DNA from: Patescibacteria group bacterium
GTDB lineage: Bacteria; Patescibacteriota; Patescibacteriia; PEXW01
Assembly (NCBI GenBank): GCA_041671325.1
Contig: JBAZBR010000001.1
Coordinates: 153,771-217,770 of the forward strand
Direction of reading: 5' to 3'
DNA: 64,000 nt
Notes under the pieces: model-generated
The model's input: the letters and a program-made list of their open reading frames with translations, nothing else
Told to the model about the DNA's origin: nothing
Databases searched by the model: none
Translations under genes and position numbers: made by a program
Shown here: piece by piece, positions 12,765 through 49,585 of the stretch
How the letters are laid out: every line of letters begins with the position of its first letter
Position numbering within the stretch: position 1 is the first letter of the stretch

Positions 12765-13660
12765 TGCCCAGCACCCGCGACATCAAACGTCGGATCAAAT
12801 CCATTGGTAATACCCGCAAGATTACCAAAGCCATGGAATTGGTTTCGGCCGCGAAAATGCGCAAAGCCGTGAGTCAAGCTTTAGCTACCCGGGCGTATGC
12901 GCATGCGGCCTGGGAGGTTTTAACCAATGTTTCCGAAGTCACTAATCGGGAAAGCCATCCTTTGTTAATTCAGAGGACTGTAAAAAAAGTTGCCGTGATT
13001 GTCATCAGCTCTGACCGCGGTTTGGCCGGAGGCTTTAATGCCAACGTGGTTAGGCAGGCTTTGGAAGTAATCGCCCTGGAAAACCAAGTACCGGTGGATA
13101 TCATTGCTTTGGGAAATAAAGGTGCGGATGGTTTGCGCCGGGCAGGTACGAATTTAGTTGCAGCTTTTTCCAATCCCCACACCAAACCCACTATTGAAGA
13201 TTTGACGCCAATTACCAAGATTGCCATTGATGATTTTGTATCAGGGGTTTATGACAAGATTTATACGGTGTACACGGATTTTGTTTCTACCTTAACTCAA
13301 AAAGCCAGGTCAAGAATAATTTTGCCAATCCAAAAAGAAACCCTCCGCCAAGTCTTGGATGATGTAGCGCCGGAAATTGAAACAATGAAAGTTGATGCCA
13401 ATAATCCCTACCTGTTTGAGCCAAACCCGGATGAAGTTTTGGAAAAAATGTTGCGGGCTTTGGTCCAGTCCCAAGTTTACCAGGTGGTTTTGGAATCTTT
13501 AGCTTCAGAACACGCCGCCCGCATGGTCGCCATGCGCAATGCCAATGATGCGGCTGAAGAATTGACTGATGATTTGACTTTAACTTACAACCAAGCTCGC
13601 CAGGCTGGCATTACCCGGGAGATCGCGGAAATATCCGCTGGCCGTGCGGCGTTGGAGTGA
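12764..13660 (+). CDS. atpG: F1 ATP synthase subunit gamma
   Basis: The N-terminus RDIKRRIKSIGNTRKITKAMELVSAAKMRKA is the gamma signature. Confidence 0.9.
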   Translation: MPSTRDIKRRIKSIGNTRKITKAMELVSAAKMRKAVSQALATRAYAHAAWEVLTNVSEVTNRESHPLLIQRTVKKVAVIVISSDRGLAGGFNANVVRQALEVIALENQVPVDIIALGNKGADGLRRAGTNLVAAFSNPHTKPTIEDLTPITKIAIDDFVSGVYDKIYTVYTDFVSTLTQKARSRIILPIQKETLRQVLDDVAPEIETMKVDANNPYLFEPNPDEVLEKMLRALVQSQVYQVVLESLASEHAARMVAMRNANDAAEELTDDLTLTYNQARQAGITREIAEISAGRAALE

Positions 13661-13763
13661 TGTCATCCCGAGCGAAGTCGAGGGATCTCGTTAACCTAAA
13701 TATTTAAGAAATCGAGATTCCTCCGCTTCACCCCGCAATGCGGGGTTACGGTCGGAATGACAA
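13661..13763. repeat. Foldback MITE-like element, copy B. It starts immediately after the atpG stop codon. A partial extra copy with a CCCCGCGGCCGCGGGG palindrome lies at 13795-13836.
   Basis: The left end is TGTCATCCCGAGCGAAGTCGAGGGATCTCG. The right end is GATTCCTCC...CGGTCGGAATGACAA. Confidence 0.7.
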
Positions 13764-14199
13764 ATAAAAAACGTACATTACAAAATCTGATTACCCTCAT
13801 CCGGCCCCGCGGCCGCGGGGTCGCTCGCAATGACAGATAAAAAGTGTTCCTTACAAAACGAAAAAGCGCCTTGAAGTTATCGCAGCGCTTTAGTAAAGAT
13901 AATTCAATTACAGAGGTTTTCTGGACACTACGGTAAAAAATCCGTCAATGTAAAGAATCTGGAAGAGTTCAAATTTTTTAATACACAGGCCATTAAGGTA
14001 ACCCTTAAGTTCTGTGGGTGTAACCACTTCAACATGGTAATCATAAGCAATAACCACTTTTTTACCCCTTTCCTTTTGTGTTTATACAGGCTAATTTAAT
14101 TAGATATGTTAACAAAAGTATGAATATTTGTCAAGCCATTTATGAAATGAAAGTTTTAATTTCTAAATAACATTAGGAATTAAAATTTCTAGTTCATAA

Positions 14200-15600
<1,401 letters not shown>

Positions 15601-15605
15601 ATTAC

Positions 15606-15743
15606 TTGTCACCCTGAGCCTGAGTATTATGAAGGCGAAGGGTCTCCACAAGTGTAAATAATATTTATAAAGATTCTCCCGCCTGCCTCGCCAGTGCGAG
15701 TACGGTGGGCAGGTCCCCCGCAGTCGCGGGGTCAGAATGACAA
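15606..15743. repeat. Foldback MITE-like element, copy C. It contains the inner palindrome cccgcctgcc...gtacggtgggcagg, which is also inserted in a pseudo-tRNA at 39116-39152.
   Basis: The terminal inverted repeats are TTGTCACCCTGAGCC / GGGGTCAGAATGACAA. It begins 6 nt after the atpD stop. Confidence 0.7.
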
Positions 15744-15750
15744 AAACCTT

Positions 15751-33340: not shown

Positions 33341-34231
33341 ATGTTAATTGACTGGATTGCGCTTGCTATTTTTGGGCTTTGTATGGTAATCTGCGCGGTT
33401 ATTATTTGGCGCAAGCTTCCAACTTTAGCCAGTATAAAAACCGAAGCAATTCCTAAACATCAGCAAGCTGCCCAAAAGAAGGCGCTCTTAGATAAGAGAT
33501 TACAAGATAAACTAGGCAGTTTTGAAACCGCAGTAATAAAAGTCTTTAAATTAATTTACCTGAATTTACAGAAATTCTTTAGAAATTTACTTAAATATCT
33601 GAAAGTTCGGGAAAGTGAATATCGCCGCAAAGTAATCACTCAAAAGGCAATTGAAAATCCCGATGCCTTAAGGGCAAAAATTGTAACTGCCCTGAATGAG
33701 GCTCAAATAAATTTAAAACAGAATGATCTGGAAAAAGCCGAGCAAATATTTGTTGATGTGATAAGTATGGATGCAAAAAATATAGACGCTTATTTGGGTT
33801 TATCTGATGTGGCAATGTCAAAAAAAGATTATGCAAATGCCAAGGAAGCTTTAAATTTTGTTTTAAAACTGCATCAAGATAATGAAGCGGCTTATAGCCG
33901 GCTTGGCAGGATTGCTTCGGATGAAGGAAACTTCAATGAAGCTGAAGCTGATTATTTAAAATCAATATCCCTGAATGCTTCCATGGCCAATGCGCAATTT
34001 GAATTGGGGAGTGTTGAAGAAAAACTTGGCAATTACGAGAAAGCAGAACAGGCTTTTTCTGAATCAGTAAAATTAGAGCCTGCCAACCCAAAATATTTAG
34101 ATGGATTAATACAGTTTGCCATTAGACAAAAAAATAAAAATTTAGCCAAAGAAACCTTGAAAAAATTAAAAGAAGCTAATCCAGAAAATGAAAAAATTGA
34201 TGAGTTATCAGAAAACATTAAAACAATTTAA
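33341..34231 (+). CDS. TPR-repeat protein with an N-terminal TM anchor
   Basis: It has a TM helix followed by several 34-residue A/Y/L-pattern repeats. Confidence 0.55.
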   Translation: MLIDWIALAIFGLCMVICAVIIWRKLPTLASIKTEAIPKHQQAAQKKALLDKRLQDKLGSFETAVIKVFKLIYLNLQKFFRNLLKYLKVRESEYRRKVITQKAIENPDALRAKIVTALNEAQINLKQNDLEKAEQIFVDVISMDAKNIDAYLGLSDVAMSKKDYANAKEALNFVLKLHQDNEAAYSRLGRIASDEGNFNEAEADYLKSISLNASMANAQFELGSVEEKLGNYEKAEQAFSESVKLEPANPKYLDGLIQFAIRQKNKNLAKETLKKLKEANPENEKIDELSENIKTI

Positions 34232-34257
34232 ATAATTTGTTTTCTCCCGCCACCTCT

Positions 34258-34333
34258 GCCGTTGTAGCTCAGCTGGTAGAGCAACTCCATGGTAAGGAGT
34301 AGGTCGCCGGTTCAATTCCGGCCAACGGCTCCA
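34258..34333 (+). tRNA. tRNA-Thr (anticodon GGT)
   Basis: The cloverleaf was folded by hand, with acceptor stem gccgttg/caacggc and anticodon loop aTGGTaa. A CCA end is encoded. It is enclosed by a 17-bp inverted repeat (34241-34257 / 34333-34349). Confidence 0.85.
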
Positions 34334-34444
34334 GAGGTGGCGGGAGAAATTACGCAACGGTTTTGTCCCGCACATTATAAATTCAATAGTTGTAAACGGG
34401 ATCTTCGAAATTGCATCAAAATTTGCCAGCGTAGCTCAGCTGGT

Positions 34445-34688
34445 ACCCCGCACAACTCACTACGTTCGTTTGCGGGGCAGGGAGCAACGGTTTTGTCTCC
34501 CTTCGGGAGATGTCCCGTAGGGACATAAACCTTGAAAAATAATTAGTTTTAAACCCGAGCCGCCCTAGCTCAGTGGTAGAGCAACTGTTTTGTAAACAGT
34601 AGGTCGTCAGTTCGACTCTGACGGGCGGCTCCAAACCCGGCGGGCAGAAACCGTAGGTCGTCCCGCGGCCGCGGGACCGCTGGCTCCA
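34445..34688 (+). pseudogene. degenerate tRNA-Thr(TGT)-like gene with hairpin insertions in the D-loop, anticodon loop and T-loop. The intact tRNA-Thr(TGT) is nested inside its anticodon-loop insertion.
   Basis: The 5' half gccagcgtagctcagctggta...gagcaacggttttgt and the 3' half aaaccgtaggtcgtc[ccgcggccgcgggac]cgctggctcca pair as acceptor and anticodon stems. Confidence 0.55.
34559..34633 (+). tRNA. tRNA-Thr (anticodon TGT)
   Basis: The cloverleaf was folded by hand, with anticodon loop ttTGTaa. A CCA end is encoded. Confidence 0.85.
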
Positions 34689-34830
34689 CGCGTCATCGCT
34701 TGTTCCACCCTTCGTGTACTCGAATTGTCGAGTCCACTGCGGGTTCCACAAGCGTGCCGCTTTCCCCAAATTTTTCTTTGAAAAATTTGGGGCTCCAATT
34801 CATTAATTTCAATAATTCAATTATTATCCT

Positions 34831-34986
34831 ATGTCACAAGAAAATCTTATCAAGTTAGAATGTACGGTTTGCAAGCACGTGAATTATCATTCAAAAAAGA
34901 ACAAAAAAACTTTGAAAAAACGTTTGGAATTGAAGAAACACTGTTCATGGTGCGAAAAGCATACTTTACACAAGGAAACTAAATAA
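34831..34986 (+). CDS. rpmG: 50S ribosomal protein L33 (zinc-ribbon form, 51 aa). It is not in the ORF track because it is under 60 aa.
   Basis: The ORF was read directly as [51 protein letters not shown], with CxxC...CxxC and a KKRLELKK segment. Confidence 0.7.
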
Positions 34987-34992
34987 TTGGAT

Positions 34993-35083
34993 GGGGGAAT
35001 AGTTCAGCGGTAGAACAGCGGTCTCCCCGCCTTCCACGCCCGACGTACCAGACGCACTCTGGCGGGGACGGGTCGGAGTACGG
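34993..35083 (+). pseudogene. degenerate tRNA 5' fragment (tRNA-Trp-like) with a GC-rich hairpin insertion after the anticodon
   Basis: gggggaatagttcagcggtagaacagcggtctcc parallels the intact tRNA-Trp 5' half. It is followed by the insert ccgcc...ggcgg and has no T-arm or acceptor 3' strand. Confidence 0.5.
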
Positions 35084-35108
35084 AAATTATATTATATTGC
35101 TAGTTGAT

Positions 35109-35182
35109 GGGGGCGTAGTTCAACAGTAGAACTTCGGTCTCCAAAACCGGTAACGAGGGTGCGACACCTTCCGCCCCCGCCA
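35109..35182 (+). tRNA. tRNA-Trp (anticodon CCA)
   Basis: The cloverleaf was folded by hand, with anticodon loop ctCCAaa. A CCA end is encoded. The T-loop tgcgaca is non-canonical. Confidence 0.75.
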
Positions 35183-35238
35183 ACTAGCGGTATACATGAT
35201 ATTATTCCTATTTTTTCTATATTTTTTAACAAAAATTA

Positions 35239-36609
35239 ATGCAACTTACAATATTATTTTTCATACTGTATATTGCCGTTGTAGTAATAATCGGTGTAAT
35301 ATCTTCACGAAAAGAGACTGAAGACGGTTTTATGATCGCAGAAAGGAAGGTGTCTGGTATCCAGGTTGCTGCCACAATGAGCGCTGGTTTTTTTGACGGT
35401 GCAACACTCGCGGTATATCTTGCGTATATTTACCTATACGGAATGTCGGCGGCATGGCTCTTTGTTGGTTTAGCCATTGGCTTTATTCTTTTGCGCCGTC
35501 GATATGCGCTGATAATAAAGAAAAGGGCGGATGAAATGCATGTGTACTCTATGCCTGAATATTTTTATAAAATTTTTGGGAAAAGAACTGGTTTAATGTT
35601 CACATTTTTACTAGTTCTGCAGTATTTTCTTCTGCTAATAGTAAACTTCATAATCGCTGGCAAAGTATTGTCATTAATTTTCCCTGTATCTTATTTCATT
35701 TCGGTAATGATCGGAGGTGCTGTAATCCTTACTTATCTTTTACTCGCCGGTTTTAAAGCCGTTATTAAAACAGACTTTTTTCAGTTAATAATAATGTTTA
35801 TAATGAGTTTAACAGTAGCAATATTCTTGTTTGGTAAAACCAATATACCAATTTCTGATTTTAGACCTTTTACTTTAGGAGTTGGCAATTTAGTAGGATT
35901 TTTACTGTTAGGATGTGTAGGAATAATGGTCGCACCCGACCTTTGGCAACGTATTTTCGCTACCAAAGATGAAATTAACCTCAAACGAGGATTGGGTTAT
36001 TCCGCAATCATCTTGCCATTACTTGCTATCATTATTAGTATTGTTGGTCTTGCAACTAAACAATTCTTTCCAAATATTGTCCCTGAAAATGCACTTATTA
36101 CAGGGTTCTCTGAGTTATTACCCTTTGGGCTTAAGGAGTTTGGCATTGTCCTGTTATATGCCGTCGCCCTTTCGTCGTCGGACACTATCACTTTCTTAGT
36201 ATCATCAATCTTTACCAGAGATTTGAAAAATTACACTAAACGGTTTGGCGAAGAATCAATGAAAAAACTTACTCGATTTTTCATGATAGTATTCGTATTA
36301 GTTGCCGTTCTTATTGCTATATTCTATCAAAACATTGTTGCCCTCGGTCTATCATTGGGCAGTTTAAGTTTGGCCTTATTCCCTGTCATTCTCGGCACCT
36401 TTTATTGGAAGCTAAACGAACGTGCGGTTTATTGGAGCTTGTTGATAGCTTTTCTGAGCGTTGTCGCAGTATTTTTAGCTGATGCTGTGAATCCGCAAAA
36501 TGTGGCAATTTCTCTACCTGTTGCGGTCATTAGTCTGTTTATCCTTAACAAAATTTTTAAGAAAAAAGAAAGAATAACCTCTGCGCCTAAAGTTACAATG
36601 ACTTTGTAG
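35239..36609 (+). CDS. sodium:solute symporter (SSS) family transporter
   Basis: It is a roughly 13-TM protein of 456 aa with an SSS-like N-terminal region. It lies between tRNA-Trp and a 29-nt repeat of the tRNA 3' part. Confidence 0.5.
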   Translation: MQLTILFFILYIAVVVIIGVISSRKETEDGFMIAERKVSGIQVAATMSAGFFDGATLAVYLAYIYLYGMSAAWLFVGLAIGFILLRRRYALIIKKRADEMHVYSMPEYFYKIFGKRTGLMFTFLLVLQYFLLLIVNFIIAGKVLSLIFPVSYFISVMIGGAVILTYLLLAGFKAVIKTDFFQLIIMFIMSLTVAIFLFGKTNIPISDFRPFTLGVGNLVGFLLLGCVGIMVAPDLWQRIFATKDEINLKRGLGYSAIILPLLAIIISIVGLATKQFFPNIVPENALITGFSELLPFGLKEFGIVLLYAVALSSSDTITFLVSSIFTRDLKNYTKRFGEESMKKLTRFFMIVFVLVAVLIAIFYQNIVALGLSLGSLSLALFPVILGTFYWKLNERAVYWSLLIAFLSVVAVFLADAVNPQNVAISLPVAVISLFILNKIFKKKERITSAPKVTMTL

Positions 36610-36661
36610 AAAACGTGGGCATTATCCAATATCACGGTACTATATCTGCCAAGCGGGCATG

Positions 36662-36690
36662 CAAAACCGGTAACGAGGGTGCGACACCTT
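36662..36690 (+). repeat. 29-nt perfect direct repeat of the tRNA-Trp 3' part (caaaaccggtaacgagggtgcgacacctt), equal to 35142-35170. It looks like an att-site scar.
   Basis: The exact match was read directly. Confidence 0.8.
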
Positions 36691-36721
36691 TTGCTCCTGT
36701 TGCATAACTATATCGAAATTT

Positions 36722-39070: not shown

Positions 39071-39270
39071 TGGAGCCAGCGGTCCCGCGGCCGCGGGACG
39101 ACCTCTGCTTTACCTGCCCACCGTACTTCGCTTGGCGAAGGCAGGCGGGCGAAAGCATTGCTCTTCCGGGGAGTTCGGATCCCGTAAGCGGGATAGCCTC
39201 ACTCCCGTCTTGGCTCTCGCAAACTCAAGCAGTTGAGTTTGCTCGTCGCCTCGACCCAACTGAGCTAGAT
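39071..39270 (-). pseudogene. degenerate tRNA-Thr(CGT)-like copy immediately downstream (minus strand) of the intact gene. It has a 95-nt D-loop insertion, a 37-nt anticodon-loop insertion and the same palindromic T-arm and tail as the 34445-34688 pseudo-tRNA.
   Basis: The minus-strand read is ctagctcagttgg[ins]gagcaatgctttcg[cccgcctgccttcgccaagcgaagtacggtgggcagg]taaagcagaggtcgtcccgcggccgcgggaccgctggctcca. The 34-nt tail is identical to 34655-34688. Confidence 0.55.
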
Positions 39271-39346
39271 TGGAGCCACCCGTCGGAGTCGAACCGACGA
39301 CCTCTGCTTTACGAAAGCATTGCTCTACCAACTGAGCTAGGGTGGC
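39271..39346 (-). tRNA. tRNA-Thr (anticodon CGT)
   Basis: The cloverleaf was folded by hand on the minus strand, with anticodon loop ttCGTaa. A CCA end is encoded. Confidence 0.8.
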
Positions 39347-39361
39347 ATAAGATATGACGCG

Positions 39362-39435
39362 TGGAGCGGGTAACGGGAATCGGACCCGTATCTCATCCTT
39401 GGGAAGGATATGTACTACCACTGTACTATACCCGC
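39362..39435 (-). tRNA. tRNA-Gly (anticodon CCC)
   Basis: The cloverleaf was folded by hand on the minus strand, with acceptor gcgggta/tacccgc and anticodon loop ttCCCaa. Confidence 0.75.
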
Positions 39436-43069: not shown

Positions 43070-43161
43070 TCCGGGATCGTCTTCCGCCAGAGGCGGATTA
43101 AGAAAATGGTAGGACAGCGGCCTTTTCCGCCCTAGGCGGACTCGCCTCCGGCGAGGAAGCC
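43070..43161 (+). pseudogene. degenerate tRNA-Gln 5' half with a hairpin insertion in the D-loop and two hairpins after the anticodon position. It lies upstream of a GIY-YIG gene.
   Basis: tccgggatcgtc[ttccgccagaggcggattaagaaaa]tggtaggacagcggcctttt[ccgccctaggcgg actcgcctccggcgagg]aagcc parallels intact tRNA-Gln positions 1-38. Confidence 0.55.
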
Positions 43162-43173
43162 AAGATATAATTT

Positions 43174-43371
43174 ATGTATTACGTTTACGTATTACTAAGT
43201 CATAAAGATAGAACAAGATATATTGGTTATTCTTCAAAAGAACCACATATTCGTCTCGCTGAACATAATAGTAGCAAAGGAATGTTTACACGTGGTCATC
43301 AACCCTGGATACTGACTTATTATGAAGAATTTGAACAGATAAAGACTGCTCGTGAGCGTGAGTTATTCTAA
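43174..43371 (+). CDS. GIY-YIG nuclease family protein (65 aa)
   Basis: It has an YVYVLLS...RTRYIGYS GIY-YIG core. Confidence 0.65.
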   Translation: MYYVYVLLSHKDRTRYIGYSSKEPHIRLAEHNSSKGMFTRGHQPWILTYYEEFEQIKTARERELF

Positions 43372-43425
43372 AAAAAGCGGCCAGGGCAGGAAATGGCTTG
43401 ACGACAAGTTTAAAAAATAATTTAT

Positions 43426-43499
43426 TCCGGGATCGTCTAATGGTAGGACAGCGGCCTTTGAAGCCGTTTATCTTGGTTCGAATCCAGGTCCCGGAGCCA
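43426..43499 (+). tRNA. tRNA-Gln (anticodon TTG)
   Basis: The cloverleaf was folded by hand, with acceptor tccggga/tcccgga, anticodon loop ctTTGaa and T-loop ttcgaat. Confidence 0.8.
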
Positions 43500-49337: not shown

Positions 49338-49585
49338 TGTCCTGCTTTTCAGTATGATTTTATCAGCTTCAAGACTTTTTTCAAGAGCAAATGCGTTAGC
49401 AGAATAGACAATTTTCGAGCCTAAACCTCACTTCGTGAGGCATGGTACCAAACCCCTTAGTAGATACTGAACCCCGTGTTCAGCGACTCTACTAAGGGTC
49501 ACATTCCGAAAGGGATGTGGGTGGCCGAAAGGTCGCTAGCTGGCGCGGGGTTTTGTGTTTTTACTCTCTTATCAAATCATAAACT

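Follow-up and report, generated by a model that had tools for sequence, protein, structure and literature searches.

A 64,000 nt stretch of the genome of a Patescibacteria group bacterium (contig JBAZBR010000001.1, 153,771-217,770 of the forward strand; hereafter the window, whose own coordinates are used throughout) contains an intact tRNA-Thr(UGU) gene within the anticodon loop of a second, degenerate tRNA-Thr(UGU) gene. This nesting had been claimed in a preliminary description of the region and was confirmed by direct reading and by exact placement of the pieces. Interrupted or partial tRNA genes recur elsewhere in the window and in related genomes, and at one tRNA-Trp gene the insertion can be placed to the base. 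We consider it somewhat probable that these loci record a series of replacements, in which tRNA genes gave way to hairpin-bounded cassettes with a tRNA of their own. Taken together, the data point to small insertion cassettes that take the place of tRNA genes and belong to a family not described before.

When 34425-34445, 34482-34496 and 34648-34688 are joined, the resulting 77-mer (gccagcg ta gctc agctggta gagc a acggt tttgtaa accgt aggtc gtcccgcggccgcgggac cgctggc tcca) is a full-length tRNA-Thr(UGU) sequence except for its T arm. This outer gene begins at 34425, about 20 nt lower than the 34445-34506 first assigned to its 5′ part, and its halves are separated by 151 nt and not by 140 nt. 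The perfect pairing described for its acceptor (7 bp) and anticodon (5 bp) stems held on re-examination and extends to the D stem (4 bp), giving 16 complementary positions, whilst the palindrome said to replace the T loop proved to be perfect over 18 nt (34660-34677). The spliced sequence aligns end to end with the tRNA-Thr(UGU) genes of relatives, the T arm excepted. ARAGORN detects nothing in it as it stands and calls tRNA-Thr(tgt) once a normal T arm is swapped in, and the outer parts gave no tRNA match in a permissive Rfam scan of 34150-35300. The outer acceptor and D stems both form in the minimum-free-energy fold computed for 34420-34695 (z = -4.9, a value that also covers the real tRNA and several GC-rich hairpins). 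Given the complementarity of the acceptor, D and anticodon stems and the end-to-end match to tRNA-Thr(UGU), the outer gene is therefore not a chance resemblance.

The insert that splits the outer gene (151 nt, 34497-34647) sits between tRNA positions 36 and 37, directly after the anticodon. Outer and inner genes differ in the acceptor stem, the D loop and the anticodon stem, and are therefore not recent duplicates of each other. The right terminus of the insert, GGCGGGCAG, is identical to the right end of an insert in the tRNA-Trp gene of a related locus, L173 (related loci are given such L numbers below), and the near-identical GGTGGGCAG ends two empty elements of 36-37 nt at 15678-15713 and 39113-39149. 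All window copies of the right-end pattern GG(C/T)GGGCAG (3/3) fall at right junctions of this kind; left ends of the other inserts read CCCGCC(T)... The insert is too short to hold a recombinase gene, and no GIY-YIG gene is present in 34497-34647.

Two other origins of the insert were considered and rejected. A 7 nt direct repeat (aaacccg) around the inner tRNA might indicate a retrocopy or a target duplication, but other cassettes have inverted flanks, and L044 shows the same leader paired with a trailer. Targeting of a fixed 4-5 nt site, of the IS200/IS605 type, is countered by left flanks (TCTCC, TTTCG, TTTGT, ATTCT) that have no common motif.

The insertion is seen most directly at tRNA-Trp, where filled and empty sites can be compared. 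An uninterrupted resident tRNA-Trp is present in both L167 and L171. L173 has this gene in two pieces (33/34 and 38/40 bases identical to L167), separated by 178 nt that lie precisely between anticodon bases 2 and 3; no base has been duplicated or lost. The tRNA-Trp inside this insert is of another sequence type, identical to the working tRNA-Trp of the window over 74/74 bases (92/101 with flanks), and the inserts of L173 and the window share the left junction ggtctcc/ccgcct (slash at the point of insertion). Judged by a tetratricopeptide repeat (TPR) protein encoded at these loci, L173 is 86% identical to L167 and 59% identical to the window. Occurrence in two distant genomes but not in a close relative is the distribution predicted for a mobile, site-specific insertion.

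Parallel cases in the window were found by exact-match mapping of each tRNA to the window together with direct reading (Table 1). At the window's own tRNA-Trp locus (34993-36705), the insert seen in L173 has expanded to 1635 nt and includes a gene for a 456 amino acid protein of the sodium:solute symporter family (Pfam SSF). In the place of the symporter, L171, L172 and L174 have a pseudouridine synthase gene. The pseudo-tRNA-Thr(CGU) bears a hairpin insert of ~90 nt in its D loop and a 37 nt element (39113-39149) between anticodon bases 2 and 3. Its CCA is followed by a trailer that starts gctcgtttcg and recurs after the tRNA-Thr(GGU) and tRNA-Trp genes of L167, L169, L171, L172 and L174, where it opens a GC-rich repeat some 110-170 nt long. 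At tRNA-Gln, the remnant comprises the first 34 nt of tRNA-Gln exactly, with a 22 nt D-loop insert beginning in a 15 nt hairpin. The gene that follows encodes 82 amino acids with a GIY-YIG domain (PF01541, E = 9e-13 after repair of a frameshift, its stop at 43369-43371 lying within an A-run) and 5 nt separate its end from the intact tRNA-Gln. A search downstream of the intact gene for the 3′ half of the interrupted copy found nothing above shuffled background.

Table 1. Coordinates of tRNA genes, remnants and inserts in the window.
Feature	Position	Strand	Remarks
tRNA-Thr(GGU) cassette	34241-34349	+	intact tRNA 34258-34333 (ARAGORN, Rfam)
Putative oldest-layer remnant (layer A)	34354-34424	+	gcaacggttttgt at 34354-34366, decayed hairpin with cccgc...cggga ends, leader of next gene
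Outer gene (layer B): acceptor 5′ strand, D-stem 5′ strand, D loop	34425-34445	+	gccagcg ta gctc agctggta
D-loop insert, 36 nt	34446-34481	+	32 nt hairpin ccccgca...tgcgggg plus cagg
Outer gene: D-stem 3′ strand, anticodon-stem 5′ strand, loop to TGT	34482-34496	+	gagc a acggt tttgt
151 nt insert, left part	34497-34558	+	hairpin A 34497-34509, hairpin B 34510-34526, AT-rich spacer 34527-34558
Inner intact canonical tRNA-Thr(UGU)	34559-34633	+	ARAGORN; Rfam RF00005, 71.3 bits
151 nt insert, right end: 14 nt tail	34634-34647	+	aacccGGCGGGCAG (= aacccggcgggcag); terminal 9-mer as in L173 Trp insert
Outer gene: last 2 anticodon-loop bases, anticodon-stem 3′ strand, variable region	34648-34659	+	aa accgt aggtc
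Perfect 18 nt palindrome in T-arm position	34660-34677	+	gtcccgcggccgcgggac; core CCCGCGGCCGCGGG also at 13806, 39084
Outer gene: acceptor 3′ strand plus tcca	34678-34688	+	cgctggc tcca
Resident-type tRNA-Trp, 5′ half	34993-35026	+	cut after second anticodon base; 31/34 bases match L167 intact Trp
tRNA-Trp anticodon-loop insert	35027-36661	+	GC hairpin, intact other-type tRNA-Trp 35109-35182, SSF gene 35239-36609
tRNA-Trp, 3′ fragment	36662-36690	+	starts at third anticodon base; 29/29 match; junction resembles L173
Pseudo-tRNA-Thr(CGU)	39071-39268	-	directly after intact gene; copy of its positions 7-51
tRNA-Gln case	43070-43499	+	5′ remnant 43070-43125, two hairpins 43126-43155, GIY-YIG gene 43174-about 43420, intact tRNA-Gln 43426-43499

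Scans of genomes and metagenomes with EF-Ts (tsf) recovered only relatives of ≤54% identity, and a metagenome scan with the TPR protein found none; the syntenic loci used here came from a search for TPR homologues and from contig look-ups (57-70% protein identity). In a distance tree of the TPR protein, the window groups with L165, L166 and L175; L173, L167, L169 and L171 cluster closely together (82-86% identical), and L172 pairs with L174. The contigs of the two closest relatives, L166 (68%) and L175 (70%), stop at the first tRNA. The ancestral arrangement is that of L167, in which tRNA-Thr(GGU), 120 nt, tRNA-Thr(UGU), rpmG and tRNA-Trp follow one another with no remnants. In L169 and L170, which derive from two samples, an intact tRNA-Thr(GGU) lies inside the remnant of a resident tRNA-Thr(GGU) with its T arm replaced by gtcccgc-cctg-gcgggac. 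A nested Thr gene accompanies the nested Trp gene of L173, and L172 has three consecutive Thr(UGU)-type copies, with a GIY-YIG gene ahead of tRNA-Trp. Nested or 5′-remnant arrangements are thus present in independent assemblies (L169, L170, L173, L165, L164, L018 and L012). Moreover, the acceptor stems of working tRNA-Thr(UGU) genes vary among close relatives (gccaccc, gccggga, gccggtg, gccgccc), as expected if genes are replaced and not slowly changed.

Three further observations were made on these relatives. The inner tRNA at the Thr(UGU) position of L173 (4429-4504) reads GGT (ctttggtaa), leaving two tRNA-Thr(GGU) and no tRNA-Thr(UGU) at the locus, which reflects either a recent anticodon switch or a tRNA-Thr(UGU) gene elsewhere. 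An insert of about 190-200 nt, the length of a group I intron, follows the anticodon in the tRNA-Thr(GGU) of L165 (4777-5050) and in the tRNA-Tyr of L118 (6309-6590); the L165 insert (about 197 nt) has no group I intron match in Rfam, and both inserts are therefore termed intron-sized here, not introns. L165 also has a tyrosine-integrase fragment after the tRNA, adjoining the tRNA cluster.

Small GIY-YIG genes (PF01541) lie between a remnant and an intact tRNA at tRNA-Gln in the window, at tRNA-Trp in L012, L018 and L172, and at tRNA-Tyr in L018, with a partial tblastn match at the tRNA-Tyr locus of L090. The two Moranbacteria loci, L012 and L018, contain partial tRNA-Tyr, tRNA-Trp and tRNA-Thr(GGU) copies with GC-rich hairpins at the T loop (ttc/gaat) or after the anticodon, and here genes for GIY-YIG proteins of 82-86 amino acids stand between the 5′ remnant and the intact tRNA. 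Intact examples of the gene lie at L172 5004-5249 and L018 8655-8900. The small proteins as a group (81-86 amino acids) consist of the catalytic domain alone, and the closest solved structures are UPF0213 proteins and the structure-specific nuclease SLX1. In L118, an open reading frame (ORF) encoding a helix-turn-helix protein of 227 amino acids precedes tRNA-Trp, at the place where other genomes have the GIY-YIG gene. The same small GIY-YIG gene is also found between pheS and pheT in L061 (7680-7950) and L068 (7490-7770), where it is enclosed by a 12-13 nt inverted repeat (gcccgttagagat ... atctctaacgggc) and looks inserted into the centre of a palindrome.

The core of the T-arm palindrome of the outer gene, CCCGCGGCCGCGGG, has three copies in the window (one in the atpG-atpD spacer at 13806, the others at 34662 and 39084) against 0.07 expected. 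Hairpins of the form CCCGC...GCGGG number nine against 1.1 expected; the D-loop insert is one of them and shares its 7 bp stem with the palindrome at 13731-13745. The element of 36-37 nt (CCCGCCTGCC...GGTGGGCAGG) has one copy in the atpD-atpC spacer (15678-15713) and another within the pseudo-tRNA-Thr(CGU), at its anticodon loop (39113-39149). Because these repeats recur in ordinary intergenic DNA, the D-loop hairpin and the T-arm palindrome are, to judge by such matches, copies of dispersed GC-rich palindrome families and separate from the tRNA-bearing insert. The atp operon spacers (13660-13860 and 15600-15745) contain three ccccgc-NNNN-gcgggg units followed by ...aatgaca(a/g)ataaaaa, and also gtcatcccgagcgaagtcgagggatc, which resembles a stretch within the D-loop insert of L174.

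The additional anticodon-arm fragments of the preliminary description (gcaacggttttgt) are indeed present at 34354-34366 and 34484-34496, but the former does not appear to be a stray duplicate. Alignment and blastn show 34354-34445 to be collinear with 4436-4536 of L172 and 4352-4453 of L173, in the order anticodon-arm 5′ piece ending ttttgt, cccgc...cggga hairpin, leader and start of a tRNA-Thr gene. On the strength of this shared order, the 34354 fragment is best read as the leftover of an older gene whose anticodon loop once received the outer gene together with its leader, which would give the locus three nested layers. The counterparts of the outer gene in L172 and L173 share its upstream leader and are unbroken across the D and anticodon loops. 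That of L173 has a normal T arm and is called as a tRNA by ARAGORN, whilst that of L172 is unsplit and has a hairpin for a T arm, its score against the Rfam tRNA model nonetheless reaching 44.9 bits.

Under the explanation that we favour, a short cassette with complementary GC-rich ends and a complete tRNA would enter the anticodon loop at 35/36 or 36/37 without duplication of the target; in the present case it would have opened the outer tRNA-Thr(UGU) between the anticodon and position 37. The cassette tRNA would take over decoding, and the cassette, on which the host presumably comes to depend, could then not be lost. The interrupted halves would remain unspliced and decay, their D loop and T arm becoming colonised by small GC-rich palindromes. 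Repetition of the process would yield nested layers, three of them at the Thr(UGU) locus, and the varied acceptor stems of close relatives. To the same family of events would belong the tRNA-Trp, tRNA-Thr(CGU) and tRNA-Gln cases of the window, together with the tRNA-Thr, tRNA-Trp and tRNA-Tyr cases of related Patescibacteria.

We infer by analogy that the Thr(UGU) nest arose through the same kind of insertion as that in tRNA-Trp. The earlier suggestion of an element that brought its own tRNA and inserted after the anticodon is thus upheld mostly by comparison with the tRNA-Trp locus, with further backing from the continuous counterparts in L172 and L173 and from the right end GGCGGGCAG in common with the L173 insert; the D-loop and T-arm hairpins, on the other hand, are not part of that insert. 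The Thr(UGU) copy would be a non-autonomous derivative lacking an enzyme. The mover itself would be a nuclease, for which the small UPF0213/SLX1-like GIY-YIG proteins are candidates because they are encoded exactly between the 5′ remnant with its hairpins and the replacement tRNA (Gln, Trp and Tyr). Speculatively, such a small enzyme might act on stem-loops that a tRNA gene is able to form. A broader proposal, which we put forward as tentative and rather doubtful, is that these are a new class of site-specific cassettes of Patescibacteria, which home to 35/36 or 36/37 with a replacement tRNA and render the host dependent. Such cassettes might exist in forms with or without a GIY-YIG gene, pick up cargo, build nested layers and cause rapid turnover of tRNA genes between lineages.

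A number of observations weigh against replacement by cassettes at the Thr(UGU) locus. There is no close filled and empty pair for this nest, as L165 from the window's own clade is arranged differently and two contigs stop at the first tRNA. No enzyme gene lies within or adjoining the Thr(UGU) copy, and no homologue of the L165 integrase fragment was found in the window (best tblastn match at E = 0.67; other recombinase families were not searched). The left end of the insert, ctccc..., is unlike the CCCGCC of the other inserts. The type of the inner tRNA (anticodon stem actgt) works in several relatives, and sequence type therefore leaves it unsettled which gene is the newcomer. Moreover, the outer gene may have been dead before it was split, since the corresponding gene of L172 is unsplit and yet has the T-arm hairpin. 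Pairing is retained through compensatory or G-U changes in hairpins A and B and in the leader/trailer helices, which could reflect function at the RNA level instead of decay. Lastly, two independent short-read assemblies of the same organism have contigs that end at ~34285 and ~34659, and leave the interior of the locus unconfirmed.

Recombination among similar tandem Thr genes has clearly shaped the region as well: a 34 nt module was copied from one locus to another, and different gene copies bear the T-arm hairpin in L172 and in L173. We think it unlikely, though, that the nest as a whole is a product of local rearrangement, that is, of unequal or illegitimate recombination among tandem tRNA-Thr genes with palindromes settling later in the redundant pieces. 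Such a history would draw on the long identical stretches that the Thr genes share (for example 15 nt between tRNA-Thr(GGU) and the outer gene) and on the module itself (34655-34688; aggtc, the palindrome and cgctggctcca), which is exactly repeated 4.4 kb away on the minus strand (39071-39104) as the 3′ end of the pseudo-tRNA-Thr(CGU). It would also accommodate the tandem 3′ fragments in L134 and L018 and, with gene conversion, the differing position of the T-arm hairpin. It sits poorly with the tRNA-Trp insert, a clean 178 nt bearing another tRNA type and placed at one phosphodiester bond, which is common to distant genomes and missing from a close relative. The common end motifs of the inserts also speak against it, as do the differences between outer and inner Thr(UGU) genes in three regions.

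The pairing retained in the helices raises a further alternative, in which the outer frame is a working RNA scaffold whose helices present the embedded tRNA and organise the processing of a co-transcript (ribosomal protein genes, tRNAs and rpmG), and which selection has kept. A consensus scan predicted neither promoter-like nor terminator-like sites between the TPR gene and rpmG, and the tRNA region is therefore probably a single transcript. The tRNA-Thr(GGU) cassette has a perfect 18 nt leader/trailer inverted repeat (34241-34258 and 34332-34349), and in comparison with the inner tRNA-Thr(GGU) of L169/L170 its pairing is kept by two compensatory double changes. L165 contains the two-hairpin module of 34497-34526 at about 80% identity, following a fragment of an anticodon arm; hairpin B shows a single compensatory pair, and in hairpin A an A-to-G substitution preserves pairing as G-U. 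L171, L172 and L173 have in common a D-arm insert of two hairpins, conserved with compensatory changes, and the outer 5′ part with its hairpins is about 80% identical between the window and L165 against 66% for the TPR protein. We nonetheless regard a selected scaffold as improbable. L167 has the same tRNA genes yet lacks the whole architecture, and in L173 the outer 5′ and 3′ acceptor strands are unpaired and the 3′ half of the outer tRNA-Trp is gaining substitutions. The same palindromes stand in atp operon spacers, unrelated to tRNAs, and a mobile element could conserve its own sequence without any function for the host.

Long leader/trailer helices are not confined to the tRNA-Thr(GGU) cassette. 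One surrounds tRNA-Trp (35093-35194; 23 nt at 83% complementarity), and similar helices surround tRNA-Thr(UGU) in L044, L164, L165 and L173. Their presence suggests processing by a double-strand-specific RNase.

A functional multi-intron or split tRNA, spliced as in some archaea and red algae, is very improbable. The inserts do lie in or at loops with all stems intact, and the 36/37 site is near the 35/36 position reported for group I introns of Patescibacteria (PMC13011429). However, removal of the inserts still leaves no T loop, the 18 nt palindrome standing in its place as a copy of a dispersed repeat, and ARAGORN finds no tRNA; an intact gene of the same anticodon lies inside the outer gene. 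No match to the group I intron model (RF00028) was obtained at E up to 10 in 34150-35300, and the hairpins of the nest, inspected by eye and without a formal bulge-helix-bulge search, close on themselves and do not pair with exon sequence. The unusual multi-intron tRNA offered as an alternative in the preliminary description is set aside on the same grounds, namely the missing T loop and the failure to detect a group I core. Chance similarity or an assembly artefact at a repeated tRNA-like sequence is just as remote: two independent short-read assemblies do break inside the locus, but the 16 perfectly paired stem positions, the end-to-end tRNA-Thr(UGU) match and the same architecture in independent assemblies of other organisms, including the two samples for L169 and L170, all speak against it.

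The wider locus reads rpsB, tsf, TPR protein gene, tRNA-Thr(GGU), nest region, rpmG, tRNA-Trp, SSF gene, HAD hydrolase, DivIC and rotamase. A spurious ORF of 117 amino acids spans the nest, and a database look-up for it returned no record. Following the CCA of the outer gene, the stretch 34689-34797 contains cgcgtcat...tccaccct, which mirrors the opposite-strand spacer and start of tRNA-Thr(CGU) at 39340-39365, and then an imperfect hairpin with 27 nt arms (34697-34754) and a perfect AT-rich 13 bp hairpin ending ctcca (34764-34792). It is possibly one further decayed tRNA copy. Elsewhere in the window, 49418-49537 is a full-length match to the LOOT RNA family of Rfam (84.1 bits, gathering score 46.4).

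If serial replacement by cassettes is correct, tRNA genes in these reduced genomes are repeatedly overwritten by small selfish cassettes, which become indispensable because they supply the very tRNA they destroy. This would explain why tRNAs of the same anticodon have unrelated acceptor stems in close relatives, why short-read assemblies of these organisms break at tRNA clusters, and why tRNA finders report odd gaps and duplicates there. It would provide a testable candidate function for the widespread small GIY-YIG proteins of the UPF0213 type, and would give the disrupted archaeal tRNA genes a parallel in bacteria. Pipelines that annotate Patescibacteria genomes should allow for tRNA remnants that are nested and riddled with hairpins.

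Lastly, we compared the locus with known systems, none of which fits fully. No description of nested or cassette-replaced bacterial tRNA genes was found in the literature searched, which is not proof of their absence. In Archaea and red algae, multi-intron, split and permuted tRNA genes give rise to functional tRNAs through a splicing endonuclease that recognises the bulge-helix-bulge motif. As in those disrupted genes, breaks here fall in the D loop, anticodon loop and T region, with GC-rich complementary sequences at the breakpoints; unlike them, the outer tRNA-Thr(UGU) cannot give a functional tRNA and is redundant. Small dispersed palindromic repeats are well known in bacteria, among them repetitive extragenic palindromes and bacterial interspersed mosaic elements (REP/BIME), Rickettsia palindromic elements and Correia elements. 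The repeats described here are likewise short, multi-copy, GC-rich intergenic hairpins able to sit in RNA or protein genes, and have copies in atp operon spacers and tRNA remnants, but some carry tRNA cargo and tRNA loops are targeted. REP-like repeats are therefore the closest match for the D-loop and T-arm hairpins, though not for the tRNA-bearing insert.

Group I introns occur in the anticodon loops of Patescibacteria tRNA genes and are enriched at 35/36 (PMC13011429). The likeness extends to the phylum, the anticodon-loop site (35/36 in tRNA-Trp and tRNA-Thr(CGU), 36/37 in the Thr(UGU) nest), precision without target duplication, and the intron-sized tRNA inserts of L165 and L118. In contrast to those introns, no ribozyme core is detectable here, and the tRNA is replaced from within the insert, not spliced. 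The tRNA gene cluster of phage T4 contains a free-standing GIY-YIG homing endonuclease, SegB (PMC2330249), which is comparable in that a GIY-YIG gene is wedged among tRNA genes and co-inherited with them. The proteins found here, by contrast, are 81-86 amino acids long with the catalytic domain only, and the Thr(UGU) copy has no such gene.

Tyrosine integrases are said, in an account by Williams from 2002, to use attachment sites in the anticodon loop and T loop of tRNA genes. The present loci resemble the scars of such integrating elements in that a mobile insertion provides a working tRNA for the gene it enters, with a partial copy left behind, in their breakpoints at the anticodon and T loops, and in the integrase fragment that adjoins the L165 tRNA cluster. 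They differ in that the cassette brings a complete tRNA and both old halves, 5′ and 3′, stay around it, in the small size of the cargo-free insert (only 151-178 nt) and the nesting of layers, and in having neither a duplicated core sequence nor a recombinase gene in the insert. Moreover, the partial copy here is not a direct repeat of the adjoining intact gene, as it would be in an integrase scar, since the halves come from a different gene copy. In Caldiarchaeum, an element that encodes a recombinase separates the intact tRNA-Thr(GGU) gene from a 5′ fragment 1.8 kb upstream (PMC3293823). This archaeal locus is the closest single known case to the arrangement reported here.

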